64,000 nt of DNA, taken from positions 8,253 to 72,252 of the forward strand of contig JACPRU010000033.1 in assembly GCA_016189835.1 (NCBI GenBank), written 5' to 3'. The notes beneath the pieces are model-generated. The model was not told the origin of the DNA. It did not search any database and was given only the letters and a program-made list of their open reading frames with translations. Of this stretch, positions 4,170 to 23,917 are shown in pieces. Each line of letters opens with the position of its first letter. The stretch's first letter is position 1. Made by a program: the position numbers and the translations under genes. The DNA is from Deltaproteobacteria bacterium (GTDB taxonomy: Bacteria; Desulfobacterota; Binatia; JACPRU01).

Positions 4170-4184
4170 TGGCACGCCGATTGC
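4170..4184 (+). promoter_or_regulatory. Sigma54 (RpoN) -24/-12 promoter TGGCAC-N5-TTGC
   Basis: Sequence TGGCACgccgaTTGC is an exact match to the TGGCAC-N5-TTGC consensus. It lies 57 nt upstream of the flp ATG (4241). A GGAGG Shine-Dalgarno is at 4226-4230. Confidence 0.7.
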
Positions 4185-4423: not shown

Positions 4424-4438
4424 GGCTTAAAGCACCGG

Positions 4439-4470: not shown

Positions 4471-4475
4471 GGATC

Positions 4476-8863: not shown

Positions 8864-9658
8864 ATGAAGCGCAGAGTGCTGCCGTCGTGGGTTCACCTGG
8901 TCACCGCCGGGTTGATCGGCGCCCTGTTCCTGGCGTTCCTCATCGTGCGCAGCGGCGGCGTCGAGGCGCGCGCGCAGTCGTTCTTCGATCTGATCGCGCG
9001 GGGCACCGCGCCGATCCTGAATGTGGACTCGATGCTCGGCCGGCGAACCGCCGAGCCGGCGCAGGGCTCCTACGTGCTGAACGGCATGCACGTGAAGTAC
9101 TTCACGATGGGCGCGCCGCAGGGGGGCGGGAGGACGATCATCGAGCTCGAGAACCTGATGGCGCGGGCCGGCTACATCCACCGCATCATTCCGGTCCAGG
9201 GCGTGCCCACGCTGGTCGGCATCCATCCCGAGACCAAGATGCTGCTGACCGCGCGGCCGGGGCGCGACCGCCGGGGCGCTCCCGCCATTCGCTTCTCGCA
9301 GCAGAACCTCTCCGAGCTGCGCGAGGACTTCCCGGCGGAGATCCCCGGCGTGCCGGTCTATCCCGGGGCGAGCGGCAAGATGCTGATCTCGTCGGAGGGC
9401 GGCGCCAAGAGCGAGAGCCTGATGTACGCGGCCGGCGGCACGGCCGAGGACATCAGGCGCTACTACCTGGCGGAGATGCAGCTCGCGGGCTGGTCGCCGG
9501 TCGTCGCTCCGCCCGCGCCGGCCGGCCTCGCCGCCGGGGTGATGTTCTTCTCGAGGGGCGGGGAAGAGGCATCGGTGCTGCTGGCCGAAATCCCGCAAAC
9601 CGCCGCCGCGATGGTGCTGGTGACGGTCGGCGGCGCGCACGCGGCGGAGGCCGGATGA
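8864..9658 (+). CDS. N-terminally membrane-anchored hypothetical protein within the Tad operon
   Basis: 264 aa starting at the ATG inside ORF 8042..9658. It has one TM (VHLVTAGLIGALFLAFLIV). I recognise no family. Confidence 0.55.
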   Translation: MKRRVLPSWVHLVTAGLIGALFLAFLIVRSGGVEARAQSFFDLIARGTAPILNVDSMLGRRTAEPAQGSYVLNGMHVKYFTMGAPQGGGRTIIELENLMARAGYIHRIIPVQGVPTLVGIHPETKMLLTARPGRDRRGAPAIRFSQQNLSELREDFPAEIPGVPVYPGASGKMLISSEGGAKSESLMYAAGGTAEDIRRYYLAEMQLAGWSPVVAPPAPAGLAAGVMFFSRGGEEASVLLAEIPQTAAAMVLVTVGGAHAAEAG

Positions 9659-9698: not shown

Positions 9699-9728
9699 TT
9701 GTCAAATCACGACGCGGTGTCCTATAGG
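9699..9728 (+). promoter_or_regulatory. Candidate sigma70-type promoter (TTGTCA -N18- TATAGG) for flp3-cpaB
   Basis: -35 TTGTCA at 9699-9704 and -10 TATAGG at 9723-9728, followed by AGGAAG and ATG 9738. Motif match only. Confidence 0.35.
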
Positions 9729-9737
9729 AAGCTGGCC

Positions 9738-9914
9738 ATGAGCGAGTGCAAGCCCGCCTCACGACGTCGCGAGCGCGGTCAGGCGATGACGGAGTACGTC
9801 GTGCTTCTGTTCGGCTGCATGCTCGGGCTGCTGGCGATCCTGACGCCGATGGCCAACGCGATTCACAACTACATGAAGTCGATCTACTTCTGCGCGTCGC
9901 TGCCGTTCCCGTGA
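9738..9914 (+). CDS. Flp-family prepilin (Flp3)
   Basis: 58 aa. MSECKPASRRRERGQA|MTEYVVLLFGCMLGLLAIL is the Flp EY motif. I prefer the ATG with upstream AGGAAG over the TTG at 9699. Confidence 0.8.
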   Translation: MSECKPASRRRERGQAMTEYVVLLFGCMLGLLAILTPMANAIHNYMKSIYFCASLPFP

Positions 9915-9957: not shown

Positions 9958-10785
9958 ATGCAGAGTCGTATGCCGATCGTCGTTGCGCTCGTGGTCGCGG
10001 TCGCGGCGATCATTCTCACCAATCTGTACATCGAGCAGATCCGCCGGGAGTCCGAGCCGGCCACGTCGACCGTGATGGTGGCGTCCCGCGACCTGACGCC
10101 GGGGACGATCCTCGCCAAGGAGGACATCGCGTTCGCCGTCCGCTACACCCAGGCGCTGCCGCGGTTCAACGTGCCGTACAACGAGAACACGCTGTATCTC
10201 GGTCAGGAGCTGACGATCGCCGTGACCAAGGACGACTACATCCTGTCGACCTACTTCGGCGGCGGCGCGCCCGGCGAGCGCAAGCTCTCGCAGAAGGTCG
10301 ACGCCAAGCTCAATCAGCGCGCGATGACGATCCCGGTCGACAACGAGCAGGGTCTCGAGGGCTCGATCCTGCCGGGCGACCGCATCGACCTGCTGCTCAG
10401 CTACCAGACCGCCGTGCCGACCGAAGCGGTCGCGGCGAGGCCGCCCGCGGGGGCCGCCGCCGCCCCGCCGCGGCGCGCCGAGTTCGTCACCGCGTCGCTG
10501 CTCGAGAACGTATACGTGCTCACCACCGGCCGGTACGGCTCCGCCAGCGAGACGCAAGGGCGCTACCGCTCGCTCACCATCCTCGTCAGCCCCGTCGAAG
10601 CGAAGCTGCTGATCTGGGCCATGAACCTCGGGAAGCTCTCGGTGCTGCTGCGCAATCCCAAGGACTTGCAGGCCACCGATCGCGCGGTCGCCTCGGGAAA
10701 CACCGACGATCTCAAAGGCCTCGGCCAGGTGCGCTTGAATATCCCGGAGGTCGTGGCCAAGAATCGGGCCAGCGGCGGCCAATGA
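9958..10785 (+). CDS. cpaB: Flp pilus assembly protein CpaB/RcpC
   Basis: 275 aa. N-terminal TM, then a SAF-like segment (VMVASRDLTPGTILAKEDI) and an RcpC-like segment (MTIPVDNEQGLEGSILPGDRIDLL). Confidence 0.85.
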   Translation: MQSRMPIVVALVVAVAAIILTNLYIEQIRRESEPATSTVMVASRDLTPGTILAKEDIAFAVRYTQALPRFNVPYNENTLYLGQELTIAVTKDDYILSTYFGGGAPGERKLSQKVDAKLNQRAMTIPVDNEQGLEGSILPGDRIDLLLSYQTAVPTEAVAARPPAGAAAAPPRRAEFVTASLLENVYVLTTGRYGSASETQGRYRSLTILVSPVEAKLLIWAMNLGKLSVLLRNPKDLQATDRAVASGNTDDLKGLGQVRLNIPEVVAKNRASGGQ

Positions 10786-10808: not shown

Positions 10809-12434
10809 ATGATCTCGCTCAAGGTCCACGGCGAATCCCATCCCCAGTCCCGAGTCGAGCAGTTCGCCAAGGACGAGGTATCGATCGGGCGGGTGGCGGG
10901 GAACGACCTGGTCCTGGCCAACACCACGGTCTCCTCGCATCACGCGCGGATCTACCGGTCGAACGGCTCGTGGATGGTCGCCGACCAGGAAAGCACGAAC
11001 GGCACGTTCCTGAATGGGGAGCGGGTGGGCGGCCCGGCATCGCTGTCGGACGGCGACGAGATCGCGGTCGGCGAGTTCCGCATCCGCGTCGACCTCGGCC
11101 AGGAGGCGAGAGCGCCGGAGCCGGCGGGGGAGGCCGAGCCGGCGCACGCCGACGACGCCGCCGTGCGCGAGATCCGCCAGAAGATCCACAAGCGGCTGAT
11201 CGAGTTTCTCGATCTGCGCTGGGTGGATCTCAGCAAGCTAGGCGAGGACCAGATCCGCTCTCAGGCGCGCGGCGCGATCGAGAACATCCTGCGCGAGATG
11301 GCGTGGGAGATCCCGAAGGGGCTGAACCGCGACCGGCTCATCCAGGAAGTGCTCGACGAGGCCCTCGGCCTGGGGCCGCTCGAGGACCTGCTCGCCGACG
11401 ACGACGTCTCCGAGATCATGGTCAACCGCTTCGACCAGATCTACATCGAGCGCAAGGGCAAGCTGGTGCTCTCGGACAAGAAGTTCACCAGCAACCGCGC
11501 GGTGCTCGGCGCCATCGAGCGCATCGTCGCGCCAATCGGACGGCGCATCGACGAGAGCTCGCCGATGGTCGACGCGCGCCTCAAGGACGGATCGCGCGTC
11601 AACGCGATCGTCCCGCCGCTGGCGCTGAAGGGCCCGTCGATCACCATCCGCAAGTTCAACAAGACCCCGCTCACGGCCGACGACCTGGTGCGCTTCGGGG
11701 CCATGACCCGCGGCATGGCGAACTTCCTGAAGCTGTGCGTCGAGCTGCGCCAGAACATCGTGGTCTCCGGCGGTACCGGCTCGGGAAAGACCACCCTGCT
11801 CAACATGCTCTCGTCCTTCATCCCCGGCGACGAGCGCATCGTCACCGCCGAGGACTCGGCGGAGCTGAAGCTCCAGCAGGAGCACGTCGTCTCGCTCGAG
11901 ACCCGCCCGCCGAACCTCGAGGGAACCGGCGCGGTGACGATCCGCGACCTGGTGCGCAACTCGCTGCGCATGCGCCCCGACCGCATCGTGGTCGGCGAGT
12001 GCCGCGCGGGTGAGGCGCTCGACATGCTGCAGGCGATGAACACCGGTCACGACGGCTCGATGACCACCCTGCACGCGAACTCGCCGCGCGACGCCCTGGC
12101 GCGCATGGAGACCCTGGTGCTGATGGCCGGCATGGACCTGCCGGTGCGCGCGATCCGCGAGCAGATGGCCTCGGCGGTCAACATCATCCTGCAGCAGACG
12201 CGCTTCAGCGACGGCAGCCGCAAGGTGACCTCGATCTCGGAGGTCACCGGCCTCGACGGCGACCAGATCCAGGTCCAGGAGATCTTCTACTTCAAGCAGG
12301 ACGGTTACGACGCCAAGGGCAAGGTCGTCGGCCGCCACGTGCCGACCGGCTACATTCCGCGGTTCTACGAGCAGCTGCGCCAGCGCGGTCTAGCCGCCGA
12401 TCTGACGATCTTCCGCAGCGAGGAGGCGAGCTAA
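10809..12434 (+). CDS. FHA domain fused to a CpaF/TadA-type secretion ATPase (paralog 1)
   Basis: 541 aa. FHA signature IGRVAGNDLVL..SSHHARIY..STNGTFLNG. ATPase part: Walker [52 protein letters not shown]. Confidence 0.9.
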   Translation: MISLKVHGESHPQSRVEQFAKDEVSIGRVAGNDLVLANTTVSSHHARIYRSNGSWMVADQESTNGTFLNGERVGGPASLSDGDEIAVGEFRIRVDLGQEARAPEPAGEAEPAHADDAAVREIRQKIHKRLIEFLDLRWVDLSKLGEDQIRSQARGAIENILREMAWEIPKGLNRDRLIQEVLDEALGLGPLEDLLADDDVSEIMVNRFDQIYIERKGKLVLSDKKFTSNRAVLGAIERIVAPIGRRIDESSPMVDARLKDGSRVNAIVPPLALKGPSITIRKFNKTPLTADDLVRFGAMTRGMANFLKLCVELRQNIVVSGGTGSGKTTLLNMLSSFIPGDERIVTAEDSAELKLQQEHVVSLETRPPNLEGTGAVTIRDLVRNSLRMRPDRIVVGECRAGEALDMLQAMNTGHDGSMTTLHANSPRDALARMETLVLMAGMDLPVRAIREQMASAVNIILQQTRFSDGSRKVTSISEVTGLDGDQIQVQEIFYFKQDGYDAKGKVVGRHVPTGYIPRFYEQLRQRGLAADLTIFRSEEAS

Positions 12435-12436
12435 CG

Positions 12437-13300
12437 ATGTTCGGCACGGGACTTCCGGTCGGTCCGCTGCTGTCGCTGGTGCTCGCCACGGCGCTCGCGA
12501 CGATGTTCTACGGCGCGTGGACGATGCTGGAGGCGGCCTACGCCGATTACCGTAAGGCGTACGTCGCGGAGGCCGCGGTGTCGCTCGGCGACCTGTTTTC
12601 CACGATGAGCCCGGAGCGGGTCTTCAACCTAAGCCTGCTGTTCGCCGGGATCGCGTTCATGCTCTTCGCGGTGCTGATCAACGTGATCGCCGGCGCGTTC
12701 TTCGCGGTGGGCGCCTTCTTCTCGCCGCGCATGTACTTCAACCTCGCCCGCGACAAGCGCCGCCTGGTGTTCTCCGAGCAGCTCGTCGATGCCCTCGGCA
12801 TGATGGCGAATTCGCTGCGCGCGGGGTTGACGCTGCCGCAGGCGATGGAGCTGGTGCAGCGCGAGATGAAGCCGCCGATCACCCAGGAGGTCGGCCGGGT
12901 CCTGCAGGACTACCGCCTCGGCAAGGATTTCGACGAGGCGATGCTGTCGATGGCGAAGCGGGTCGGGAGCCGCGACCTCGACATCCTCGTCAACTCGGTG
13001 ATGATCACCCGGCGCAGCGGCGGCAACGTCGGCGAGATCTTCGGCAACATCGCCACCACGATCCGCGAGCGCTTCCGAGTCGAGCAGAAGCTGCGCGCCA
13101 TGGCGTCGACCGGCACCGCCCAGGCCTTGCTCATGTCGGCGATGCCGTTCATGTTGATGGGAGCGCTGTTCTTCGTCGAGAAGGAGTACGTGATCCTCTT
13201 GTTCTCGACCACCGTCGGCCTGATCGCGGTCGGCGTGGTCGTGTTCCTGGTGGTCGCCGCGTTCTTCTGGATCCGGCGCATCATGGACCTGGACATCTGA
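12437..13300 (+). CDS. tadB: TadB-like type II secretion system F-family platform protein
   Basis: 287 aa. The T2SSF domain pattern is LVDALGMMANSLRAGLTLPQAME...ITRRSGGNVGEIF, flanked by TM helices. Confidence 0.85.
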   Translation: MFGTGLPVGPLLSLVLATALATMFYGAWTMLEAAYADYRKAYVAEAAVSLGDLFSTMSPERVFNLSLLFAGIAFMLFAVLINVIAGAFFAVGAFFSPRMYFNLARDKRRLVFSEQLVDALGMMANSLRAGLTLPQAMELVQREMKPPITQEVGRVLQDYRLGKDFDEAMLSMAKRVGSRDLDILVNSVMITRRSGGNVGEIFGNIATTIRERFRVEQKLRAMASTGTAQALLMSAMPFMLMGALFFVEKEYVILLFSTTVGLIAVGVVVFLVVAAFFWIRRIMDLDI

Positions 13301-13301
13301 G

Positions 13302-14201
13302 GTGGCGATGGGCTTCGACGTGCTGACGTTCTACGCGATTCTCGGCTGCTGGGCGGTCGCCTCGTTCCTGCTCACCTACCTGATCATCATCAACCGCCCG
13401 GAGGCGATCGCGCGCCCGGAAGGCCGCGAGGAGCAGATCCCGAACGCGGTGATGCGCATCGCGCTGCCGATCGCCCGCATGCTCGCTCCATTGCACCGCA
13501 ACGCGGCGAACACGCCTCGCGGCCGCGACCTGAACCGCACGCTGGTACGCGCCGGGCGGCCCTTCGGCCTGACCGTCCCGGAGTTTCTCTGTCTGCGCTA
13601 CGTGGCGATCGTCGCCGGGGCGCTGTTCGGCTGGGCGATCGCCTTCGGCTTCACGGGGCGAGGCGATCCGGTCTACGTGGCGGGCGGCGTGGTGCTGTTC
13701 TTGATGCTGCCGGGGTCGCGCCTGAAGGGCATGGTGGAGTGGCGGCGCGTGCGGATCTTCCGCGACATGCCGTACGTGCTCGACCTGCTGGTGTTGTCGA
13801 CGGAAGCCGGCCTCGACTTCTCCTCGGCGATGAACACGGTGGTTGAGAAGGGTCCGAGCGGTCCGCTGGTCGACGAGTTTCGCGTCGCGCACCAAGAGGT
13901 GACGCTCGGCAAGTCGCGCGCGGACTCGCTGCGCGCCATGGCCGAGCGCATCGACCTCGCCGAGCTGACGAGCTTCATCCTGGCGCTGATCCAAGCCGAG
14001 CAGCTCGGTGCGAGCGTCGGCAAGATCCTGCGCATCATGTCCGAGCAGATGCGCATCAAGCGCTTCACGATCGCCGAGGAGATGGCCGGGAAGGTTCCGG
14101 TGAAGCTCATGGCGCCGCTCTTCGTTTGCATCTTCCCGGCCTCCTTCCTGGTCCTCGGCGTGCCGATCTATCTGAAGGCGAGCCTCGGCGGGCTGAGCTG
14201 A
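13302..14201 (+). CDS. tadC: TadC-like type II secretion system F-family platform protein
   Basis: 299 aa. MPYVLDLLVLSTEAGLDFSSAMNTVV...LIQAEQLGASVGKILR with C-terminal TM helices. Confidence 0.85.
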   Translation: MAMGFDVLTFYAILGCWAVASFLLTYLIIINRPEAIARPEGREEQIPNAVMRIALPIARMLAPLHRNAANTPRGRDLNRTLVRAGRPFGLTVPEFLCLRYVAIVAGALFGWAIAFGFTGRGDPVYVAGGVVLFLMLPGSRLKGMVEWRRVRIFRDMPYVLDLLVLSTEAGLDFSSAMNTVVEKGPSGPLVDEFRVAHQEVTLGKSRADSLRAMAERIDLAELTSFILALIQAEQLGASVGKILRIMSEQMRIKRFTIAEEMAGKVPVKLMAPLFVCIFPASFLVLGVPIYLKASLGGLS

Positions 14202-14214
14202 GATCCCGCTGCCT

Positions 14215-15639
14215 ATGAACGTTCGCCTCGAGGACGTCGAAGAGATCCGCTTCGTCGTGGTCCAGGGCGCCACCACCGGATCGCGGGTCACCTTCGCCCC
14301 CGAGCCCCGCACCGTGCGCATCGGCCGCGCGGTGGACAACGACATCGTGCTGAACGATCCGGCCGTGTCGCGGGCGCACGCCCGGGTCGACATTTCGGCC
14401 GACGGCGCGCGGATTCAGGACCTCGGCAGCGCGGGTGGAGTCGAGAAGATGGGGTTCCGGCTCGGCGCCGCTGCCGAGCCGCTGGTGAGCGGCGACGAGT
14501 TCAAGATCGGCGCGACGATCCTGCGCTACGAGCTGCTTCTCAAGAGGGGCGCCGTTCGCCGCGCCGCGAAGCCGGAGGAGGAGGCGGCGAAGAAGAAGGC
14601 CGCGCTGCCGGCGCCAAGGGAGCTGGTCGGCGCGGTGAGCAAGTCGTTGCGCCGATTCGGGCTGCGCACCCCGGCGAGCCAGATCCTCGCGCTCGCCGCC
14701 GTGGCCGCGCTCCTCGTCGTCGCCTTCTGGCCGTCGAAGCCCGGCCTGCCCCCGCAAGCCGGGGCCGAGCCGGCGCCGATCAACTTCGAAGCGGTGGTCG
14801 GCTACGTGCCGGGGGGCGACCAGAGCCATCTCGACGGCGCGGTCTTCGAGATCCCGACCGACGCCGACGCCCAGGCGATCTACTTCAAGGTGAACGCGCC
14901 GCACGGGATCGACGTGCGCGTCGGCAAGCAGGTGATCGTCTCGCAGAAGCCGTCCGGCGACTGGCGCGATCTCATGTTGCTGGTGATCCCGCGGGCGGTG
15001 TCCGGGGACGGCGCGCCGCAGTTCGTGCTCGACAACCTCGGCTACGCGCCGGCCGACGGCGGGGTAGACCCCGCGGCCGCTCCCGGCTGGGCGGTGGCGA
15101 GGATGTGGGCGGCACGGGTTGCGGCGGGCGCCACGCTGCAGGCGCAGGTCACCGCCGACGCCAAGATTCTCGAGACGCTGTCGACGGAAGTGGCGCAGGA
15201 TTCGCGAGAGCTCTACCGCTTGGTGGCCGGACTGCGCAGCCTCGCGGTGGGGCTCATGAAGCTCGCCGGCCGCCCGGTGATCGTCCTGCAGCTCGGCGGC
15301 ACGGCCCGGGGAGACCTGGTCACGCCCGCCCTGCGGTCGGCGCGCGAGGCGCTCGAGGGCGGCCAAAACGGGCCGGCGCTCGACCGCCTGACGCAGGCGC
15401 TCGGGGCGGCCGAGAGCCGGCTCGATCGCGAGTACCGCGAGCGCTTCAACGCGCTCCAGCTGCTGCAGAAGCGTGGCGCTGGCCAGGAGGTGGGGGCCTT
15501 GCTCGCCTCGCTCGAGCCCTGGATCCCGGAGCCCACCGATCCGCGTCATCGCGAGATCCTCAGCCAGAAGCAAAACCTTGATGCGGCGGCCCAATACGGC
15601 TACGACGAGGCCAAGAAGAAGGCCGAGCTCGAAGATTAG
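14215..15639 (+). CDS. Bitopic FHA-domain protein (cytoplasmic FHA, one TM, about 290-aa periplasmic region)
   Basis: 474 aa. FHA signature IGRAVDNDIVLNDPAVSRAHARVD...SGDEFKIG. TM helix ILALAAVAALLVVAFW. The C-terminal domain is unrecognised. Confidence 0.8.
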   Translation: MNVRLEDVEEIRFVVVQGATTGSRVTFAPEPRTVRIGRAVDNDIVLNDPAVSRAHARVDISADGARIQDLGSAGGVEKMGFRLGAAAEPLVSGDEFKIGATILRYELLLKRGAVRRAAKPEEEAAKKKAALPAPRELVGAVSKSLRRFGLRTPASQILALAAVAALLVVAFWPSKPGLPPQAGAEPAPINFEAVVGYVPGGDQSHLDGAVFEIPTDADAQAIYFKVNAPHGIDVRVGKQVIVSQKPSGDWRDLMLLVIPRAVSGDGAPQFVLDNLGYAPADGGVDPAAAPGWAVARMWAARVAAGATLQAQVTADAKILETLSTEVAQDSRELYRLVAGLRSLAVGLMKLAGRPVIVLQLGGTARGDLVTPALRSAREALEGGQNGPALDRLTQALGAAESRLDREYRERFNALQLLQKRGAGQEVGALLASLEPWIPEPTDPRHREILSQKQNLDAAAQYGYDEAKKKAELED

Positions 15640-15648
15640 GCCGGCAAG

Positions 15649-17193
15649 ATGATTCTCTCGGTTTCGCAAGCCGGAAACGGGTCGCCCCGGCGCCTCGATC
15701 TCCAGGGCGCGGAAGTCGTGCTCGGGAAGCATCCCGATTGCGACGTCGTGCTCGCCGACGCGAAAGTGTCCCGCCGCCACGCGCACATCGTGTCCCGCGC
15801 CGGAGCGCTGTTCATCAACGACCTCGGCAGCACCAACGGCACGAAGGTCAACGGCAAACGGCTCGACGGCGAGGCGCCGCTGCGCAGCGGCGACGTGATC
15901 GAGATCGCCGCGTTTCGCATCCAGGTCGACGAAGGCCCCGCCGGCGCCGCGCCCCGGCCGGCGCAGCGGGCGCCGGCGGAGCCGAAGCCGGCGGCGCCGA
16001 AGCTCGCGGAGAAGGCGGCGGAGGCGAAGGCCGAGGAGGAGAGCGAAGAGGCCAAGAAGGCGCGCATGTTCTGGGCCTCGATGGAGAGCTTCTTCCAGCC
16101 GATCTGGCAGTACATCGAGAACCCGTCGGTGTCGGAGATCATGGTGAACGGCCCGCGGGAGATCTTCTTCGAGAGGAAGGGGAAGCTCGAGCGGTCGCCG
16201 GCGACGTTCACCGAGGAGGGCGTCCGCGCGGCGATCATGAACGTGGCCCAGTTCATGGGCCGGCGCGTGAACGAGGAGAATCCCTATCTCGACGCCCGCC
16301 TGCCCGACGGCTCGCGCGTGGCCATCGTGCTGCCGCCGTGCTCGCGCAAGGGGCCGAGCATCGCCATCCGCAAGTTTTCGAAGGAGAAGCTGACGCTCCA
16401 GGACCTGATCCGCTTCGGGACGATGAGCGAGGAGATCGTCCAGTTTCTCGACATCGCCGTGAAGCTGCGCAAGAACATGATCGTCTCGGGCGGCACCAGC
16501 TCGGGAAAGACCAGTCTTCTGAACATCATCTCGGCGCTGATCCCGAACGAGCAGCGCATCCTCGTGATCGAGGACTCGGCCGAGCTGCAGCTCCAGCAGG
16601 AGCACGTGCTGCCGCTGGAATCGAAGCCGCCCGACAAGCACGGCAAGGGCGAGGTGACGCTGCGCGAGCTGGTTCGTGCCTCGCTGCGCCTGCGTCCCGA
16701 CCGGATCGTCGTCGGCGAGGTGCGCGGCGGCGAGGCGCTCGACCTGCTGCAGGCGATGAACACCGGACACTCCGGGTCGCTGGCGACGACCCACGCCTCC
16801 TCGCCGTTGCAGACGCTCTCTCGTCTCGAGACCCTGACGCTGTTCTCGGGCCTCGACCTGCCGATCATCGCCATCCGCGAGCAGGTCTCGACGGCGATCG
16901 ATCTCATCATCCAGGCCGCGCGGCTGCCCGACGGGTCGCGCAAGGTGACGCACATCTCGGAGGTCCTGTCGCTGACGCCGGAAGGCAAGTACCAGGTGCA
17001 GGACATCTACCGCTTCGTGCGCACCGGCATGGAGGGGGACCGCATCGTGGGCGAGCATCGAGCCGCCGGAAACCTTCCGTCGTTCCTCGACGAGATCGAG
17101 CTCGCGGGCTTCAAGCTTCCTCCCTCGCTGGCCGAGCTGGCGAGCCAGCCCGGGGCCCGAGAGAAGGTCGCGCGCAAGGCCGGCGCGCATTGA
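15649..17193 (+). CDS. FHA domain fused to a CpaF/TadA-type secretion ATPase (paralog 2)
   Basis: 514 aa. FHA signature LGKHPDCDVVLADAKVSRRHAHIV..STNGTKVNG. ATPase part: [51 protein letters not shown]. Confidence 0.9.
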   Translation: MILSVSQAGNGSPRRLDLQGAEVVLGKHPDCDVVLADAKVSRRHAHIVSRAGALFINDLGSTNGTKVNGKRLDGEAPLRSGDVIEIAAFRIQVDEGPAGAAPRPAQRAPAEPKPAAPKLAEKAAEAKAEEESEEAKKARMFWASMESFFQPIWQYIENPSVSEIMVNGPREIFFERKGKLERSPATFTEEGVRAAIMNVAQFMGRRVNEENPYLDARLPDGSRVAIVLPPCSRKGPSIAIRKFSKEKLTLQDLIRFGTMSEEIVQFLDIAVKLRKNMIVSGGTSSGKTSLLNIISALIPNEQRILVIEDSAELQLQQEHVLPLESKPPDKHGKGEVTLRELVRASLRLRPDRIVVGEVRGGEALDLLQAMNTGHSGSLATTHASSPLQTLSRLETLTLFSGLDLPIIAIREQVSTAIDLIIQAARLPDGSRKVTHISEVLSLTPEGKYQVQDIYRFVRTGMEGDRIVGEHRAAGNLPSFLDEIELAGFKLPPSLAELASQPGAREKVARKAGAH

Positions 17194-17220
17194 AGCCGCG
17201 GCGACGCGAGGGGAGGATCA

Positions 17221-18747
17221 GTGGCCGAAGAGAAGAAGCCGCCCGCGTTTGATCCGGACAAGACCGTCGTCGACGTGCGCCGCCGCGACGCTCCGCCGGC
17301 GGACGAGCGGACCATCGTCGCGCCCCGGCCGCCCGCCGAGCGGCCGGCGGCACCGGCGGCGGATGCCGAACGCACGGTGGTGATGACCCGCCGTCCGGCG
17401 GTGACGGAGGATCTCGACAAGACCCGCGTCGCCGCCGCGCCGGGCGCGGGCGCCGGGGCGATGGACCGGACGATGGTCACGCCGGTCGGAGCTCCGCCGG
17501 CGAGCGCCGCCGCCGCCCGCGGCGGGGATTTCTTTCTCGTGCTGCTCTCCGGATCGCAACGCGGACAGCGCTTCCCCCTCGGCCACGGCGACTTCTCGAT
17601 CGGCTCGGCCGCCGGCGCCCACGTGCGCCTGGCGACCGCCGAGCCGGCGCACGCGAAGCTCACTCGAGAGGACGACGGCTACGAGCTGCAGAACACCGGC
17701 AGCCGCGGCTCGGTGATCGCCCACGGTCGAGCGATCACGCGGTCGAAGCTGAGGACCGGCGACCTGTTCAAGGTCGGCGATCACGTGCTGCGACTGGTGA
17801 AGGTCGGTGACGTCTTCTCCTCGGATTACTCGGACTCGGACTTCGAAGCCCCGGGAGCCGGCCGCTTTCTCGACCCCGAGTACCTGCGCGAGCATCCCGC
17901 CCTGCTCGCCGTGGCGGGCGTCGTGGTCGTCGCCCTGGTGGTGTTCTTCTTCCGGCCGCAGTCCTCGGCGCCGCCCCCGACGCCGACCACCGCGACGGAC
18001 GACAACGCGCAGCGGGCCGAGCGAGCCAAAGAGGTGAGCGCGATGCTGCTCGCCGGCGAGGTGCTCTTCAATCAGGGTCGCTACGTGGCGCCGCCCGACC
18101 GGCCGGAGGAGGAAAACGCCTACGCGAAATTCAACCACGCCCTGGCACTCGATCCGGGCAACGACCAGGCGCGCGACTGGTTGAAGAAGATCGACGGCAA
18201 GCTCGACGAGTCACGCCGCGAGCGCGAGCAAGCCGAGCTCAAGCGCCTCGCGGCGGAGGAGGCCGCGCGGGAGGCGGAGCGCCGGCAGCTCGCCAAGCGG
18301 GTCGAGGCCATCCTGGTGGTCGGAGACCAGCTCTTCCAGGCCGGCAAGGTGGTCGAGCCGGCCGGAGACAACGCGCTCGTGCGCTACCGCGAGGCGCTGA
18401 AGGTCGACCCGGACAGCGTCGAGACCCAGGGGCGCATTCGGCGCGCGATCTACTCGCTGGTCGAGCAGGGGGACGGCTACCGCGACCGGAAGGACAACTG
18501 GCGAGCGCTGGAGCAGTACCGCAAGGCCGACCGTGCGGCCGCGCACAAGGATCCCGAGATCGTCGCCCGGCTCGATGAAACCGAGAAGATGTTGAAGTCG
18601 GGGATGGCGAGCACGCAGACGCGGATCGTCATCTACCGCGACGACAACGGCCAGCTCTACGTGCTCGACGAGATGGACAAGGTGCCCGCTCGATACCGAG
18701 ATCGAGCGATCGAGATCAATCCGGTCCAGAATCCGGCCCAACCCTGA
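17221..18747 (+). CDS. Bitopic protein: disordered Pro/Ala N-terminus, divergent FHA-like domain, one TM, TPR-like periplasmic region
   Basis: 508 aa. FHA-like segment FFLVLLSGSQRGQRFPLGHGDFSIGSAAGAHVRL...TGDLFKVGDHVLRLV. TM helix LLAVAGVVVVALVVFFF. TPR-like helices are (YAKFNHALALDPGNDQARDWL) and (RYREALKVDPDS). Confidence 0.7.
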   Translation: MAEEKKPPAFDPDKTVVDVRRRDAPPADERTIVAPRPPAERPAAPAADAERTVVMTRRPAVTEDLDKTRVAAAPGAGAGAMDRTMVTPVGAPPASAAAARGGDFFLVLLSGSQRGQRFPLGHGDFSIGSAAGAHVRLATAEPAHAKLTREDDGYELQNTGSRGSVIAHGRAITRSKLRTGDLFKVGDHVLRLVKVGDVFSSDYSDSDFEAPGAGRFLDPEYLREHPALLAVAGVVVVALVVFFFRPQSSAPPPTPTTATDDNAQRAERAKEVSAMLLAGEVLFNQGRYVAPPDRPEEENAYAKFNHALALDPGNDQARDWLKKIDGKLDESRREREQAELKRLAAEEAAREAERRQLAKRVEAILVVGDQLFQAGKVVEPAGDNALVRYREALKVDPDSVETQGRIRRAIYSLVEQGDGYRDRKDNWRALEQYRKADRAAAHKDPEIVARLDETEKMLKSGMASTQTRIVIYRDDNGQLYVLDEMDKVPARYRDRAIEINPVQNPAQP

Positions 18748-18816
18748 ATCGACGGGAGGTCCGAGGGGACGGAAGACACTCCGAGGTGCCGCACGGCAGC
18801 GGCGAGGGAGGGCGCG

Positions 18817-19392
18817 ATGGCGGAATACAGGCTGCTTTCGGTAACGTTGAAAACCCCCCACGGTATGCAGAGCTGGCTCAATCGGCTCGGGGCGGACGGC
18901 TGGCGCACCCGGGGGGCGACCGCGAGCTTCCTCCTGCTCGAGAAGTCCACGGTGGCGCGAGAAGCCGCGCTGGTGTCGATCACGCTGCGAGGCCCTGTGG
19001 GGATCCTCCGGCAGGTCGAGCGGTGCGCCGGCGAGGGATGGGAGCTGGGCGCGATGGGAGCGAGCTTCCTGTTCTTCGACCGCCCCCGCGACGGCGCGGG
19101 CCGCAAGCTCGACTACAAGATGGACTCGATCACGCTGCGCTCGCTGGCGGGCGTTCGCAAGCTCGCCGACGACTACGGCGAGCAGGGATGGCGGCTGCGA
19201 GGGTTCGGCCCGAGCCTGGCGATCTTCGAGCGCGAGGAAGAGACCCGCAGCACGTACCGGCACGAGTTCGAGAGCATCACGCTGCGAACGCCCGCGGGGA
19301 TCCAGGCGCTGCTCGCGGCACGCGGCGAGGCGGGCTGGGCTCTTTCCGACGCCTCGCGTAACCTAGCGGCGTTCTCCCAAGCGGTCGGCTGA
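18817..19392 (+). CDS. Protein made of four tandem ~45-50 aa repeats (DUF4177-like modules)
   Basis: 191 aa. The repeats are SVTLKTPHGMQSWLNRLGADGWRTRG..., SITLRGPVGILRQVERCAGEGWELGA..., SITLRSLAGVRKLADDYGEQGWRLRG... and SITLRTPAGIQALLAARGEAGWALSD.... Confidence 0.7.
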   Translation: MAEYRLLSVTLKTPHGMQSWLNRLGADGWRTRGATASFLLLEKSTVAREAALVSITLRGPVGILRQVERCAGEGWELGAMGASFLFFDRPRDGAGRKLDYKMDSITLRSLAGVRKLADDYGEQGWRLRGFGPSLAIFEREEETRSTYRHEFESITLRTPAGIQALLAARGEAGWALSDASRNLAAFSQAVG

Positions 19393-19415
19393 GGCGACGC
19401 TGCGGGGCGGTCAGG

Positions 19416-20921
19416 ATGCTGCTCTCGATCCAGCGCGAAGGCGCGCCGGCGCACGAGGTGAACATCCCCGGCGAGACCGCCGTGCTCGGCAAGCACGCCG
19501 ATTGCGAAGTCGTTCTCGACGACCCGCTGGTCTCGCGCCGCCACGCGCGCCTGCGTCTGGACGCCGGCCGCATCGTGCTCGAGGACCTCGGCAGCACGAA
19601 CGGCACGGAGCTCGCCGGACAGCCGGTGGAAGGACAGCGGGTCGTCGAGCCCGGCCAGGAGATCCGCATCGGCCCGTTCGCGATCTTCGCGTCACTGCCC
19701 GAAGTGACGCTCGTGCAGCACGCCCCGGCGCCCGCCGTCGCGGCGGGCTCAGCCGTGGGCGCCGGGATCTCGGCCGCGGACTCCGTGCAGCCCGCACCGG
19801 CCCCGGCCGCATCGGCGCCCGCCGCCGCACCGGCGCCTGCCGTCGCAGCGGCGCCCAACGTCGCGATGGCGGGCGTGGATTTCGGGCCGCTCGCGCCGTT
19901 GATGGCCGCCGACGAGGTGAGCGAGATCATGGTGAACGGCCCCGACGAGGTGTTCGTCGAGCGCGGCGGGCGGCTGGAGCTGACCGGCGCGTGCTTTTCC
20001 TCGGCGGATGCGCTGGGCGAGCTGATCCGCACGCTCGCCACCCAGGGCGGGCGATCGATCGACGAGCGCCGGCCGATGGTCGACGCGCGCATGCGCGACG
20101 GGTCCCGTCTGAACGCGATTCTCCCGCCGCTCGCGCTGCGGGGACCTTGCTTGACGATCCGGCGCTTTCCGCGCCAGCGGCTCTCGGCGGCGGATCTGGT
20201 GTCGGTCGGAGCGCTGAGCGAGCCGATGCTGGCCTTCCTGCGCCTCGCCATCCACGGCAAGCTGAGCCTGCTCGTGTCCGGGGGAACCGGCTCGGGGAAG
20301 ACCACGCTGCTGAACGCGCTGGCCAGCTTCGTCGGCGACGATCAGCGCATCATCACCATCGAGGACGCCGCCGAGCTGCGGCTGCCGCAACGGCACGTGT
20401 TGCCGCTCGAGGCCCGCCCGCCGGACCCGGACGGCGGCGGCCAGGTGACGATTCGCGAGCTGGTGCGCAACGCGCTGCGCATGCGTCCGGACCGGATCGT
20501 GGTCGGCGAAGTGCGGGGCGCCGAGGCGCTCGACATGCTCCAGGCGATGAACACGGGGCACGAGGGCAGCCTGTCGACGGTCCACGCGAATTCGCCTCGC
20601 GAAGCGCTGTCCCGCCTCGAGACGCTCGTGCTGTTCGCCGGTGCGGACCTGCCGCCGCGCGCGATTCGCGAGCAGATCCTCGGCGCCATCCGGCTGCTCG
20701 TTCACACCGCGCGGGGCGACGACGGCAAGCGGCGCGTGACCTCGATCACCGAGCTCTCCGGCATGGAAGGGGAGCAGTTCACGCTCGGCGAGATCTTCCG
20801 CTACGAGCCCGGCGCGGGGGGGACGGGCCAGTTCCGCGCCACCGGCTACGTGCCGCGGTGTCGCGACCGGCTCGCCGAGCGCGGATTCGCCGCCGACAAC
20901 GCCTGGTTCCAGCCGAGGTAG
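19416..20921 (+). CDS. FHA domain fused to a CpaF/TadA-type secretion ATPase (paralog 3)
   Basis: 501 aa. FHA signature [33 protein letters not shown]. ATPase part: [51 protein letters not shown]. Confidence 0.9.
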
Positions 20922-20930
20922 GCCGGCCGC

Positions 20931-22294
<1,364 letters not shown>

Positions 22295-22310
<16 letters not shown>

Positions 22311-23917
22311 GGGCGGTCCTCGGCGTCGGCCAGGGCGGCGGTGCGGAAATCGACGGGCAGCGCCACCGTGAAGGTGCTGCCTTGTCCCGGCGTGCTTTCC
22401 ACCGTCAGGCGTCCGCCGTGCATCTCGACGAGCTGGCGGCTGATCGCCAGTCCGAGGCCGCTGCCGGTGCGGCGGCCGCGCGCGCGTTGGACCTGATGGA
22501 ACTTGTCGAAGACCCGCTCGATCTCGACCGCCGGAATTCCCACCCCGGAGTCCCGTACCAGCAGCTTGACGATGCCGCGCTCGTCGACGACCCGCACGTC
22601 CACCCGTCCCCCGGCCGGGGTGAACTTGATGCCGTTGTGCAGCAGGTTGATCAGCACGCGCGAGATCTTGTCGCGATCGGCGCGGATGGTCAGCGCGGGC
22701 GGCTCGACCGCCGCCACCTGCACGCGGTGCTCCTCGGCGAGCGGCCTCAGGGTCTCGAGCGTCTCGCGGATCAGCGCGTCGAGCGGGAAGCGAGTCGCGA
22801 GCACTTCCTCCTTGCCGGCCTCGATCCGCGACAGATCGAGCAGCTCGTTGATGAGCCGCAGCAGCCGGTGGCTGTTGTCCTTGATGCGCACGAGATAGGA
22901 GCGAGGGCGCTCGTCGAGCGGGCCGGTGATGCCGTCGAGTAGGTTGTCCGCGGCGCCCATGATGGAGGTCAGCGGCGTGCGCAGCTCGTGGGACACCTTG
23001 GAGATGAACTCCGACTTCAACTCCGACAGCTCCTTCAGCCGCAGCGCGGCCTCGTGCTCGCGCTCGTAGGCGTCGGCCTGCAGCAGCGCCACGCCGAGCT
23101 CGGCGGCGATCTGCGAGAGCACCGCGACGTCCGAGGCCGAGAACGCGTCCTGCCTGCGGCTGCCGAGATGGAACGTTCCGATCGCCTGATCGCCGACCAC
23201 GAGCGGCAGCACCACCTCGCGGCGGCTCGCCGACAGGCTGAGCGTGTCCTCGTCGACGCCGCCGAGCGCGACGTCGTACACGGCGGGCTCGCGCCGCCTG
23301 ACGACGTCCGCCACGCGCGAGCCGGCGAGCGGGATGCGCTTTCCCTGCAGCCCCCCGGGATTTCCCGAGATCGCGAACACGGTGGCGGTCTGCGGATCGA
23401 CGACGCGGGTGATCGAAGCCTGATCGAAATCGACGAGGCGCCGAGTGCCGTCGACCACCGCCGCGAAGATGCGCTGGAAATCGAGGCTCGAATTGACCGC
23501 GTTGGTGACCTCGTGGATCAGCGAGAGCCGCTCGCTGGCCTCGCGTAGCGCTTCGGTGCGCTCCTCGACCTTGCGCTCGAGGTCACGGTTGAGCTCCTCG
23601 AGCTGGCGCACCTTGTCGCGAAGCTGCTCGCGCATGCGGTCGATCTCGGCGCCGAGCAAGCCGATCTCGTCGCCGGTCCGCGCCGGCACGGGGTCGTCGT
23701 AGTGGCCTTCGCCGATGCGGCGCGTCGCGCTGACCAGCTGGTCGAGGCTGCGCGCGATCGAACGACCGAGCACGGTGGCCAGCGCGATGGCGAACACGGC
23801 CAGCGCGGTCAGCCCCGCCTGCACCCACCAGTCCCAGGGCGGCATCGAGACCAGCAGGATCGCGGCGGTGACGATCTCGAGCGCGTAGATCAACAGCTTG
23901 CCGCGGATCGTGAACAC
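22295..23917 (-). CDS. Sensor histidine kinase (TM, HAMP, coiled coil, GAF, HisKA, HATPase_c)
   Basis: 540 aa. H-box SHELRTPLTSI, N-box LINLLHNGIKFT, G-boxes DSGVGI and GSGLGLAI. It overlaps the response-regulator start by 16 nt, which implies an operon. Confidence 0.9.

Follow-up and report, generated by a model that had tools for sequence, protein, structure and literature searches.

Three FHA-containing CpaF-family ATPases in a Kil-like Tad pilus operon of an uncultured Binatia-type bacterium

A Tad pilus operon with three ATPase genes

The 64-kb stretch of DNA that we analysed (the window) contains, at about 4.2-20.9 kb, one operon that includes three genes coding for CpaF-family ATPases, here called A1, A2 and A3. 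The features of the operon and of the adjacent two-component pair are as follows.

4170..4184, + strand: match to the sigma-54 type -24/-12 promoter consensus (TGGCAC-N5-TTGC); the first Flp gene lies ~57 nt downstream
4241..4423, + strand: Flp-type prepilin, 60 aa (translation: motif ...KGQG/MTEYIIIVILIALAVLIF)
4476..4943, + strand: 155-aa protein with an Flp-like N-terminus (GTTEYVVLIV; translation)
4956..5804, + strand: TadE-like minor pilin, KilL/M-like (Pfam TadE, E 6.6e-7)
5808..7736, + strand: TadG-like pilus tip protein (Pfam Tad, PF13400, E 3.6e-9)
7740..8852, + strand: TadE-like minor pilin (Pfam TadE, E 1.1e-4, slightly under the gathering cutoff)
8864..9658, + strand: conserved protein with no assigned function (orthologs at the same position in L001-L004)
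9699..9914, + strand: Flp-like prepilin (…RGQA/MTEYVVLLFGCMLGLLAIL; translation, start codon uncertain)
9958..10785, + strand: CpaB/RcpC, KilB-like (Pfam RcpC, E 1e-15, and SAF)
10809..12434, + strand: A1, with FHA domain, short linker, three-helix bundle (3HB), NTD and CAD; KilF-type (class III) CpaF
12437..13300, + strand: TadB/CpaG-like platform protein, KilG-like (Pfam T2SSF, E 1.3e-18)
13302..14201, + strand: TadC/CpaH-like platform protein, KilH-like (Pfam T2SSF, E 1.3e-14)
14215..15639, + strand: MXAN_4649-like protein of SctD/PrgH-like topology, with FHA domain, one TM and large C-terminal domain (Pfam)
15649..17193, + strand: A2, with FHA domain, disordered linker, remnant helix, NTD, CAD and extra C-terminal helices; no 3HB
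17221..18747, + strand: KilD/MXAN_4648-like protein, with N-terminal Thr-motif array, FHA-like domain, one TM and TPR/coiled-coil C-terminus
18817..19392, + strand: 191-aa protein with four tandem ~45-aa repeats (SITLR.P.G…GW.L; sequence)
19416..20921, + strand: A3, with FHA domain, ~55-aa disordered Ala/Pro linker, NTD and CAD; no 3HB
20931..22310, - strand: NtrC-type sigma-54-dependent response regulator (Pfam Response_reg, Sigma54_activat, HTH_8)
22295..23917, - strand: HAMP-GAF histidine kinase, partner of the response regulator (Pfam HAMP, GAF_2, HisKA, HATPase_c)

In the same-strand cluster around A1-A3, the gaps between genes measure 1-69 nt. Besides the three ATPases, which would be hexameric, the operon codes for Flp pilins, a TadE/TadG/TadE tip set, CpaB and one TadB/TadC platform, together with two membrane proteins, an SctD-like one with FHA and a KilD-like one with FHA/TPR. 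Its order matches cluster 2 of the Kil (Tad-like) system of Myxococcus xanthus gene by gene, and in this uncultured Binatia-type bacterium it specifies a pilus machine of the Kil-like Tad (type IVc) kind. In Myxococcus the ATPase gene adjoins the secretin gene, apart from the platform genes; here the ATPase genes sit in the platform operon. No secretin or prepilin peptidase was found among the window ORFs scanned, so completeness of the machine is an assumption.

The product of 4241..4423 has a hydrophobic helix after a G/xxxEY Flp-like processing motif. That of 4476..4943, which had no match in a Pfam search, has a second, C-terminal hydrophobic segment. A homologous small ORF occupies the position of 9699..9914 in L003, and every related locus has small genes called at that place. 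The TadG-like gene is syntenic in L002, L087 and the JGI 67.5-kb contig, and the position of the second TadE-like gene is conserved in related loci. The protein encoded by 8864..9658, for which the start codon was picked by eye (MKRRVLPSW...), has a hydrophobic segment close to its N-terminus. The 191-aa repeat protein gave sub-threshold Pfam matches only (DUF4177/DUF2812); a 193-aa gene takes the equivalent position in the JGI 67.5-kb contig, and the gene is missing at this position in L001, L002 and L086.

The promoter sequence upstream of the first Flp gene is the sole exact match to TGGCAC-N5-TTGC in the window (~0.1 expected by chance, estimated from base composition), and window matches with up to two mismatches were not enriched. 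The response regulator gene is convergent with the operon end, and the two-component pair is syntenic in L002, L086 and the JGI 67.5-kb contig. Transcription of the operon is probably sigma-54 dependent via this adjacent NtrC-type pair.

Domain architecture and age of the paralogs

The three ORFs lie on the plus strand exactly where the original prediction had placed them and code for proteins of 541 (A1), 514 (A2) and 501 (A3) aa, identical (100%, equal length) to the NCBI-annotated MAG proteins P0237, P0001 and P0121, respectively. Pfam FHA (E 7e-20, 9e-21 and 5e-17 for A1, A2 and A3) and T2SSE (E 1e-61, 1e-54 and 3e-57) match all three, and the best solved relative of each is Caulobacter crescentus CpaF (E 1e-128, 4e-93 and 9e-101). 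The Walker A, Asp-box and post-Asp-box strings reported earlier are correct in all three translations; the Walker B/His-box pattern holds for A2 and A3, and A1 departs from it slightly, with GECRAGEALD in place of RG.EALD. In CpaF numbering, used for all conservation counts, K287, E308, D309, E312, E357, H374 and H382 are 100% conserved among 49+61 A2, 55 A3 and 9 A1-type sequences, as are the arginine fingers R217, R223 and R347, except for R217 in A3 orthologs (52/55); K287 and E357 were additionally checked in 48 Binatia A1 and 72 KilF-like proteins. Loss of the catalytic Glu or of Arg fingers was looked for, and both are retained in A1, A2 and A3. All three ATPases are thus predicted to be catalytically intact, in agreement with the earlier view that none is a dead paralog.

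The single architecture first proposed holds for the FHA domain, linker and CpaF-type ATPase common to all three proteins, but not for the 3HB, which is found in A1 alone. The linkers are rich in Pro/Ala/Glu and predicted to be disordered at residues 99-127 of A2 and 98-149 of A3. Alignment to CpaF begins at CpaF residue 92 for A1, which therefore includes the 3HB, and at residues 150 and 146 for A2 and A3, respectively. A 3HB profile built from A1 sequences matched 48/48 A1 orthologs and 71/72 KilF-like proteins, compared to 0/110 A2-family and 1/56 A3-family proteins. In AlphaFold2 models, a single remnant helix (residues 133-145) lies between the FHA domain and the NTD of A2, and no helix does in A3. 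In C. crescentus the 3HB is part of the minimal CpaF and contacts the N-termini of CpaG/H, and its removal abolishes CpaF expression (PMC12019362). In lacking the N1/3HB domain, A2 and A3 resemble PilT, which lacks the N1 domain of PilB.

The paralogs share only 48% identity pairwise overall and 49-56% in the ATPase core; they are old, and the triplication noted earlier is not a recent one. Core identity of A1 is 56% with C. crescentus CpaF, 51% with A2 and 55.5% with A3. In the NJ tree, the deep, 3HB-less A2-type clade, which spans at least four phyla, and the A3 clade each received 100% bootstrap. Confined to Binatia, the A3 family is narrow: among 1.84 billion representatives it amounts to essentially a single cluster at 50% identity. 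For every paralog there are dozens of orthologs (55-89% identical), and A1, A2 and A3 form three separately conserved families of orthologs. The nearest A1 relatives outside Binatia are Myxococcota KilF orthologs such as P0320, whose gene sits in a kilA-kilC-kilF-kilD locus, and A1 is the KilF-type canonical motor. The FHA-linker-CpaF fusion itself is already known, as class III CpaF (PMC12019362) and as M. xanthus KilF (PMC8460266).

The three-ATPase order was found in 5/5 related contigs inspected (L001, L002, L086, L087 and the JGI 67.5-kb contig), with six Binatia-type contigs strictly keeping the order TadB-TadC-FHA-A2-KilD-like-A3. A frameshift in L087, perhaps through assembly error or decay, splits the A3 gene over three reading frames. 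A two-ATPase version occurs in L003 and L004 (Bdellovibrionota) and in L018, which is labelled uncultured Myxococcia; two ATPases are also present in L050 (Phycisphaeraceae) and L071 (Polyangia). The A1...A2 part is conserved in Bdellovibrionota at ~50% identity. Some A2-clade genes of Myxococcales, "short" members among them, lie outside any Tad locus; one in Archangium is flanked by kinases and a toxin-like gene.

Redundancy after recent duplication, or decay into pseudo-ATPases, as the split gene of L087 might suggest, is scarcely credible given the catalytic residues conserved in every family, the numerous orthologs of each paralog and the phylum-level spread of the A2 clade; for the window genes, this candidate is refuted by the 48% identity, the conserved catalytic residues and the tree.

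Platform-docking motifs and candidate roles of the three ATPases

The paradigm of a single CpaF per Tad system had been quoted correctly (PMC12019362; bioRxiv 10.64898/2026.02.24.707734). In CpaF, G204/R205/R206/D208 of loop 8 and E331/G334 of the pore loop touch the platform (PMC12019362). The N-face serves extension and the C-face retraction; the R387A mutant of Caulobacter CpaF does not retract, and in the retraction orientation the N1 domain clashes with the platform N-termini (bioRxiv 10.64898/2026.02.24.707734). A1 of the window retains G204, R205, R206, D208, E331, G334, P386 and R387 besides the 3HB, and the same contact residues are present in 48/48 Binatia A1 orthologs except for E331 (47/48); both published platform-docking faces are intact in A1. 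Among 150 positions at least 90% conserved across canonical, A1 and KilF-like CpaFs, A2 differs at 37 and A3 at 21, with clusters at residues 198-210 and 326-331. A2 has L/A for R387 (Arg in 0/49), N for D208 and H for E331, and carries a C-terminal extension; A3 orthologs keep R387 (55/55), have R206 in 0/55 and are variable at E331. Both retain G332 and G334 of the pore loop. On the N-terminal (extension) face, A2 and A3 are thus substituted in both the alpha5-loop 8 and the pore-loop motifs. Since this face is altered in both, the pattern is not a clean reciprocal loss.

The division of labour put forward in the original prediction finds circumstantial support in the absence of N1/3HB from A2 and A3, in their altered contact motifs and in R387 being present in A3 and not in A2. 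One machine with specialised, exchangeable motors is the reading that we tentatively favour, at somewhat short of even chances; extension by A1 and retraction by A3 would be a transfer of single-residue and domain data from C. crescentus CpaF.

The other option first raised, one motor per pilin, would have each ATPase assemble a different Flp pilin or tip set via shared envelope components. Three Flp-like ORFs (4241-4423, 4476-4943, 9699-9914) do face three ATPases, and M. xanthus has several interchangeable tip complexes (PMC12075869), but this option fits poorly with the single TadB/TadC pair and single CpaB, with the two ATPases of L003 and L004, with the canonical extension face being confined to A1 and with current models, in which the ATPase touches the platform and not pilins (PMC12019362). 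We regard it as very improbable.

Alternatively, A2 and A3 would not be pilus motors and A1 would be the sole bifunctional motor, like Myxococcus KilF. A2 and A3 would then be ATP-driven accessory or regulatory hexamers, acting as checkpoint or assembly factors on the SctD-/KilD-like FHA scaffolds or driving delivery of effectors or the tip complex. This reading, somewhat unlikely in our estimation, draws on the full canonical docking set (3HB, loop 8, pore loop, R387) being found in A1 alone, on M. xanthus functioning with the single ATPase KilF (PMC8460266) and on the SctD-like FHA gene, which always lies directly upstream of the A2-type ATPase gene (in Binatia, Bdellovibrionota and one Myxococcia MAG). 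"Short" A2-clade members lack both R206 and R387; because of this loss and of the orphan genes away from Tad loci, a TadB/C platform may not be what the A2 clade acts on. The rcpA2-tadA2 module of Bdellovibrio bacteriovorus is dispensable for predation (10.64898/2026.07.08.737194), which would add to this reading if its tadA2 belongs to the A2 clade. However, A2 and A3 retain the whole NTD-CAD motor fold, the pore-loop glycines and the arginine fingers, the retraction-face Arg is invariant in A3, and both genes stand close together with those of the platform within one operon.

It is also improbable that A2 and/or A3 are merely co-located with the operon and serve a second machine encoded elsewhere, be it a cluster with the missing secretin and peptidase (the counterpart of kil cluster 1) or a different platform. 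The lack of secretin and peptidase genes among the scanned ORFs, the Myxococcus ATPase gene next to the secretin and the A2-clade genes outside Tad loci would fit, but the strict gene order in six contigs and the A1...A2 part kept in Bdellovibrionota argue against it.

FHA domains, scaffold proteins and a proposed model of motor exchange

The N-terminal domains are genuine FHA folds, as claimed: besides the Pfam matches, the A2 model resembles the FHA domains of GarA, OdhI and EmbR (target-normalised TM ~0.8). That the motors are gated by a phospho-signal is unproven. The canonical phosphate-binding FHA Arg is Lys in A2 and A3 (Gly-Lys for Gly-Arg; invariant in A3) and no Ser/Thr kinase or phosphatase was found among the window ORFs scanned, for which reasons phospho-dependence is uncertain. 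The SctD-like protein matches Pfam FHA (E 2e-11) and Yop-YscD_cpl (E 5e-12) and has its TM at residues 150-168. The KilD-like protein matches Yop-YscD_cpl (E 4e-11) and, weakly, TPR, and its N-terminus holds an array of five [DE][KR]T.[VIL] motifs, with repeats conserved in L002; in its homologues in L003 and L004, an N-terminal Ser/Thr kinase domain replaces the array.

In the favoured reading of exchangeable motors on a single TadB/TadC platform, A1 would dock via its N-face and 3HB and polymerise the pilus, and may still be bifunctional. A3, N1-less like PilT and with an intact C-face, would dock in the retraction orientation and depolymerise the pilus. A2, with its own strongly conserved surface, would work with the SctD-like scaffold in a third step, which might be priming, stalling, tip loading or an accessory role like that of PilU. 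Through its FHA domain, each motor would be held at phospho-Thr (or mimicking) sites of scaffold proteins, for which the five-fold [DE][KR]T.V array of the KilD-like protein is the best candidate. Motor recruitment would therefore be signal-dependent, just as Kil assembly is contact-dependent in Myxococcus. Because two of three apparently intact motors lack the canonical platform-docking part, the cluster may represent a naturally occurring division of extension and retraction between motors.

Three co-operonic CpaF paralogs in a Kil-like Tad locus

Open reading frames of the window were chosen with GC3 guidance and then subjected to domain searches. All three ORFs of the original prediction, A1, A2 and A3, were recovered on the + strand, and their products are 100% identical over their full length to NCBI-annotated proteins of a metagenome-assembled genome (MAG) labelled 'Deltaproteobacteria bacterium', while their close orthologs carry the labels Candidatus Binatia or Binatota. 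The genes lie in one tightly packed operon (gene gaps of 1-69 nt). It opens with a pair of Flp-like genes, followed by a TadE-like, a TadG-like and another TadE-like gene, a conserved unknown, one more Flp-like gene and CpaB/RcpC; then come A1, two T2SSF genes, an FHA-TM gene of SctD/PrgH topology, A2, an FHA-TM-TPR gene, a four-repeat unknown and A3. The ATPases are thus co-encoded with a TadB/TadC platform, CpaB/RcpC and Flp genes, a CpaF/TadA-type context.

Features of the pilus locus
4170-4184, + strand: sigma-54 -24/-12 consensus TGGCAC-N5-TTGC, the sole exact match in the window
4424-4475: G+C-rich inverted repeat (GGGGCTGGGCCGCC…GGCCGGGGCGGCTCAGCC) immediately 3' of the first Flp gene
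10809-12434, + strand: A1, FHA-linker-CpaF/TadA-type ATPase
14215-15639: SctD-like FHA protein
15649-17193, + strand: A2, FHA-linker-CpaF/TadA-type ATPase
17221-18747: KilD-like protein
18817-19392: 191-aa protein of four tandem repeats of ~45 aa
19416-20921, + strand: A3, FHA-linker-CpaF/TadA-type ATPase
20931-23917, - strand: sigma-54-dependent response regulator and HAMP-GAF histidine kinase, convergent with the operon end

The first Flp gene starts ~57 nt downstream of the exact sigma-54 consensus, and the response regulator/histidine kinase pair is syntenic in related contigs. The position of the consensus at one end of the operon and of the syntenic regulator pair at the other suggests that sigma-54 and this two-component pair control the pilus genes. 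With mismatches allowed, the pattern showed no enrichment over the whole window (37 matches vs 47 expected). The spot after the first Flp gene, occupied here by the inverted repeat, is where one usually finds a partial terminator, which lifts major-pilin transcript levels relative to the genes downstream. The 191-aa protein (repeat pattern …SITLR.P.G……G..GW.L…) shows similarity to DUF4177/DUF2812 below threshold only; its gene, between the KilD-like gene and A3, occurs in the window and one related contig and is missing in three others. Elsewhere in the window, a HerA-like ATPase (47377-48900; Pfam HerA_C, E 4.5e-224) lies amid housekeeping genes (class II tRNA synthetase, TonB-dependent receptor, CobT-like phosphoribosyltransferase) and has no relation to the pilus locus.

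Apart from the inserted ATPases, the operon matches Myxococcus xanthus kil cluster 2 gene for gene (MXAN_4648-4661; PMC8460266), sharing the order minor pilins/TadG, pilin, CpaB, two T2SSF, PrgH-like FHA and FHA-TPR, and the two systems also have in common an FHA-fused ATPase (KilF) and an over-representation of FHA proteins. Whereas Kil has a single ATPase, encoded beside the secretin in a separate cluster, three are found both in the window and in five related contigs, and those of the window are interleaved with platform and scaffold genes. The candidate ORFs scanned in the window, a selection, include no secretin, prepilin peptidase (Peptidase_A24), Ser/Thr kinase or PP2C phosphatase, so that neither the short Kil secretin, which lacks N0, nor the peptidase KilA has a counterpart among them. 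Since none was found there, these components must presumably be encoded elsewhere in the genome, as in Myxococcus kil cluster 1. That A2 and A3 instead work for another machine, encoded outside this locus, is an alternative that we consider improbable. Kil mediates contact-dependent prey killing; the host of the present locus belongs to an uncultured, Binatia-type MAG lineage.

Pfam detects FHA (E 5e-17 to 9e-21) and T2SSE (E 1e-54 to 1e-61, far above cutoff) in each of the three proteins, and Caulobacter crescentus CpaF is the top solved relative of all three. The best NCBIfam model is TIGR03819, conjugal-transfer-associated TadA (A1 325, A2 282 and A3 325 bits; cutoff 373); no NCBIfam equivalog threshold was reached by any of them. 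Membership of the PilT/PilU clade was considered and rejected: all three proteins belong to the CpaF clade. Scores against pilT_fam were 47-57 bits for a cutoff of 319, and in Foldseek searches with the A2 and A3 models PilT, PilU and PilB ranked far below CpaF and FlaI; archaeal GspE, too, came well ahead of PilT and PilB. Any retraction role in A1-A3 would be analogous to that of PilT, not homologous.

The motif strings originally quoted for these proteins were right except for a trivial deviation in the Walker B block of A1. In C. crescentus CpaF numbering, K287, E308, D309, E312, E357, H374 and H382, covering the Walker A Lys, the Asp box, the Walker B Glu and both His-box histidines, occur in all three window proteins and in 100% of their ortholog families. 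The arginine fingers R217 and R223 of the ATPase core domain NTD and R347 of the core domain CAD, whose functions are described in PMC12019362, are likewise found in A1, A2 and A3; R223 and R347 are 100% conserved in every family, as is R217 except in A3 orthologs (52/55). The catalytic losses expected of pseudo-ATPases are absent, which bears out the claim that none is a dead paralog, and from their sequences A1, A2 and A3 look catalytically competent.

Ancestry and distribution of the paralogs

Comparison of genomic contexts built on ortholog contigs found the order with three FHA-ATPases in 5/5 related Binatia-type contigs inspected (L001, L002, L086, L087 and a JGI contig of 67.5 kb), and contigs of matching length among the hits of A1, A2 and A3 suggest more such cases. 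In L087, the A3 gene (12716-14343) is broken across three frames (FHA, core start and core remainder), reflecting either assembly indel errors or decay in that lineage. Such a split is what redundant or decaying copies might look like; with the catalytic residues intact in every family, that explanation has next to no probability. Two Bdellovibrionota contigs (L003, L004) have the same order with A1 and A2 only, and there the product of the gene after A2 is a Ser/Thr kinase domain fused to an FHA part. In a Myxococcia-labelled MAG (L018), A1-TadB-TadC-FHA precedes a short ATPase of A2 type that carries no FHA domain. A contig profile scan supplied, among the matches listed, a broad CpaF background and the 'short' members of the A2 clade; the relatives among those matches had at most 56% identity, and none was a close Binatia ortholog.

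Overall identity among A1, A2 and A3 is 48%, and the ATPase core of A1 is 56% identical to that of C. crescentus CpaF, 55.5% to A3 and 51% to A2. Trees were inferred by neighbour-joining with 200 bootstraps and midpoint rooting, no outgroup being used. They recovered a deep 'A2-type' clade (100% bootstrap) that includes the FHA-bearing A2 proteins of Binatia and Bdellovibrionota as well as short ATPases of Myxococcota, Planctomycetota and Bdellovibrionales without FHA and without the three-helix bundle (3HB) of CpaF. The A3 clade also received 100%, the group of A1 and other FHA+3HB proteins within canonical CpaFs 80%, and the placement of A3 as sister of the A2 clade versus canonical CpaF 39.5%. 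A1, A2 and A3 are ancient paralogs.

Outside Binatia, the nearest relatives of A1 are Myxococcota FHA-CpaFs, KilF orthologs with 55-67% identity. One of them, P0320 from Archangium gephyra, is encoded in an FHA-peptidase-secretin-ATPase-FHA/FHA locus; since this locus is identical to kil cluster 1 (kilA-kilC-kilF-kilD), P0320 is a KilF ortholog, and in this verified context it served as our KilF reference, standing in for M. xanthus KilF. A3 is narrowly distributed, with one full-length representative (815 bits) among 1.84 billion 50%-identity representatives and the next full-length single-stretch match in the same library at 556 bits. Proteins with two to four CpaF-like stretches each (P0357, 1156 aa; P0358, 1605 aa; P0361, 1356 aa) score better against the A3 profile than single-domain ones, and Chloroflexota 'CpaF family' proteins of about 800 aa show the same multi-stretch pattern; either tandem fusion of ATPases or merged gene calls could explain such proteins.

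An orphan A2-clade ATPase of A. gephyra without FHA and 3HB (contig L006, 4977-16245) is a 704-aa ORF translation, ~245 aa of which lie outside the ATPase core. Genes for two Ser/Thr kinases and for a Tox-REase-5 toxin-domain protein flank it, and the neighbourhood examined has no Tad genes. As a lead to a known system, the Myxococcales orphans proved uninformative. The A2 clade may include members with non-pilus roles.

Domain architecture, docking faces and FHA domains

The three proteins had been predicted to share one architecture. This stands for the FHA domain, linker and ATPase, and fails for the 3HB, which is confined to A1. Alignment to CpaF begins at residue 92 in A1, thereby including the 3HB, and at 150 in A2 and 146 in A3. 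A profile of the 3HB derived from A1 proteins detected the bundle in 48/48 Binatia A1 and 71/72 KilF-like Myxococcota proteins, compared to 0/110 A2-family and 1/56 A3-family proteins. AlphaFold2 models A2 (mean pLDDT 77.8) as FHA, a disordered stretch (99-127) and a helix (133-145), then the NTD; this helix is what is left of the bundle's third. In the model of A3 (mean pLDDT 86.0), the NTD directly follows FHA and a disordered stretch (98-149). CpaF is the closest PDB structure to both models. Yen et al. described 3HB-NTD-CAD as the minimal CpaF architecture and found that removal of the 3HB abolished CpaF expression (PMC12019362). A1 has this minimal architecture and the complete FHA-IDR-3HB-NTD-CAD of class III; A2 and A3 depart from the minimal architecture. 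Because they have the FHA domain and disordered region of class III and the 3HB is missing, A2 and A3 form a distinct sub-architecture.

Published work places the platform-contacting N-face of CpaF in loop 8 (G204, R205, R206, D208), the pore loop (E331, G334) and the 3HB (PMC12019362), and the C-face needed for retraction in R387, the beta13-beta14 turn and a C-terminal motif (bioRxiv 10.64898/2026.02.24.707734). According to the latter study, an R387A mutant does not retract, and in the retraction orientation N1/3HB clashes with the platform N-termini.

Table. Docking elements in the three families (A1 with KilF-like proteins; A2; A3)
3HB: A1 and KilF-like, present; A2 (Binatia), absent; A3, absent
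R206: A1 48/48, KilF-like 72/72; A2 47/49; A3 0/55, lost
D208: A1 48/48, KilF-like 72/72; A2, replaced by N; A3 53/55
E331: A1 47/48, KilF-like 72/72; A2, replaced by H (K in distant members); A3, variable
R387: A1 48/48, KilF-like 72/72; A2 0/49, lost; A3 55/55
C-terminus: A1 and KilF-like, canonical; A2, extra helices; A3, canonical

As a guard against cherry-picking, we systematically scanned the 150 positions whose conservation reaches 90% or more across canonical, A1 and KilF-like CpaFs. A2 replaces 37 of these and A3 21, 15 being common to both. Since the replacements concentrate at 198-210 and 326-331, the N-face is remodelled in both A2 and A3, and of the two only A3 has kept the retraction-face Arg. 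A clean reciprocal loss, in which A2 would keep the N-face and A3 the C-face, was rejected, both N-faces being altered in the scan. A reading of A2 and A3 as hexamers with accessory or regulatory duties, and not as motors, would accord with their altered N-faces and missing 3HB, and less readily with their intact arginine fingers and the retraction-face Arg of A3; we judge it rather unlikely.

Confident model folds and the Pfam matches agree that the N-terminal domains are FHA domains, as predicted; their pLDDT is about 84-98 in the A2 and A3 models, and the A2 model aligns with the FHA domains of GarA, OdhI and EmbR with target-normalised TM of about 0.8. The phosphopeptide motifs read IGR...SSHH...STNGT in A1 and LGK...SRRH...STNGT in A2 and A3, so that Ser-x-x-His and Ser-Thr-Asn-Gly are retained in all three, and the canonical Gly-Arg of A1 is Gly-Lys in A2 (45/48 Binatia orthologs) and A3 (46/46 sequences); distant A2 proteins mostly have Arg at this position. 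The view that the motors are phospho-signal-gated thus lost ground, with no kinase or phosphatase among the window ORFs scanned and Lys in place of the phosphate-binding Arg in A2 and A3. The same two points set the locus apart from FHA control in T6SS (Fha1/PpkA/PppA) and T3SS (SctD/YscD), which it resembles in the cytoplasmic FHA domains that a membrane nanomachine carries or has beside it, in the SctD-like FHA-TM topology of the 14215-15639 protein and, as regards Thr-phosphorylation, in the Ser/Thr kinase domain of the Bdellovibrionota KilD-like homologs. YscD-type FHA domains are known to function independently of phospho-Thr.

The Pro/Ala-rich, disordered N-terminus of the KilD-like protein (17221-17480) contains five evenly spaced [DE][KR]T.[VIL] motifs (DKTVV, ERTIV, ERTVV, DKTRV and DRTMV), an array also found in L002 (11675-11960); Bdellovibrionota KilD-like homologs have their kinase domain at that end instead. 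The array could be a candidate phospho-Thr docking site and, together with the five FHA-type domains of the locus, would be compatible with phospho-dependent motor tethering, short of proof.

Motor roles and significance

The CpaF paralogs of the Kil-like Tad operon are thus three in number, all conserved and catalytically intact and separated by an ancient divergence; only A1 is canonical. We tentatively infer that specialised motors take turns on a single platform. Extension would be the task of A1, which might still be bifunctional, and retraction that of A3, a PilT-like specialist docking by its C-face; A2 would fill a third role together with the SctD-like scaffold, and the motors would be recruited via their FHA domains. 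The original prediction had also offered one motor per pilin; three Flp-like genes do accompany the three ATPases, next to one pair of T2SSF platform genes, and we hold this option to be highly improbable.

Three further published systems offer comparisons. A1-A3 share their catalytic residues and arginine fingers with C. crescentus CpaF and the 'class III' CpaF orthologs (Yen et al. 2025, PMC12019362), and A1 has the full class III domain set; unlike those proteins, A2 and A3 lack the 3HB and have substituted loop 8 and pore-loop contacts. Type IVa PilB/PilT/PilU, the class I motors (Whitfield et al. 2026 preprint), are likewise several paralogous hexameric ATPases on one platform, with differentiated docking faces and a proposed retraction paralog without the variable N1 domain; in contrast, A1-A3 belong to the CpaF clade, every motor bears an FHA domain, and their functional split is only deduced. 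The Tad system of Bdellovibrio bacteriovorus, from a related 'delta-proteobacterial' lineage, also has three TadA paralogs and adjoining FHA/TPR regulators (bioRxiv 10.64898/2026.07.08.737194). However, its paralogs (TadZA, tadA2 and tadA3) are dispersed over three loci and the main ATPase is fused to TadZ, whereas those of the window are all co-operonic and FHA-fused. The rcpA2-tadA2 module of B. bacteriovorus is dispensable for predation (same preprint).

FHA-CpaF fusions (PMC12019362, PMC8460266), FHA-rich Kil systems (PMC8460266) and the three dispersed tadA paralogs of Bdellovibrio (10.64898/2026.07.08.737194) have already been published. In the open-access library searched, we came across no account of a Tad system with several CpaF genes in one operon, of CpaF paralogs devoid of the 3HB, or of a Tad/Kil system from Binatota. 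For a single ATPase that both extends and retracts a filament, Tad pili are the textbook example; nucleotide-switch, platform-rotation and ATPase-inversion models compete to explain how it does so. As the operon shows, the 'minimal' 3HB-NTD-CAD architecture is not obligatory, and an unnamed deep clade of 3HB-less CpaF paralogs is spread across several phyla. Kil-like machinery now extends to Binatota, beyond the predatory Myxococcota, Bdellovibrionota and Bradymonadales known so far; we know of no described predatory or pilus biology in Binatota.

The three proteins are natural variants, A1 with every published docking element, A3 with the retraction-face Arg only and A2 without Arg and 3HB, that let surfaces be matched to pilus direction. 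It is possible, if doubtful, that a multi-motor 'class I' (PilB/PilT-like) set re-evolved in a branch of the Tad/Kil lineage from the single inverting CpaF, in which A1 would extend, the 3HB-less, C-face A3 retract and A2 take a third role, the motors being swapped on one TadB/TadC by FHA phospho-tethering to a multi-Thr scaffold. If so, A1-A3 would amount to naturally occurring separation-of-function alleles that bear on the ATPase-inversion model of how Tad pili retract.
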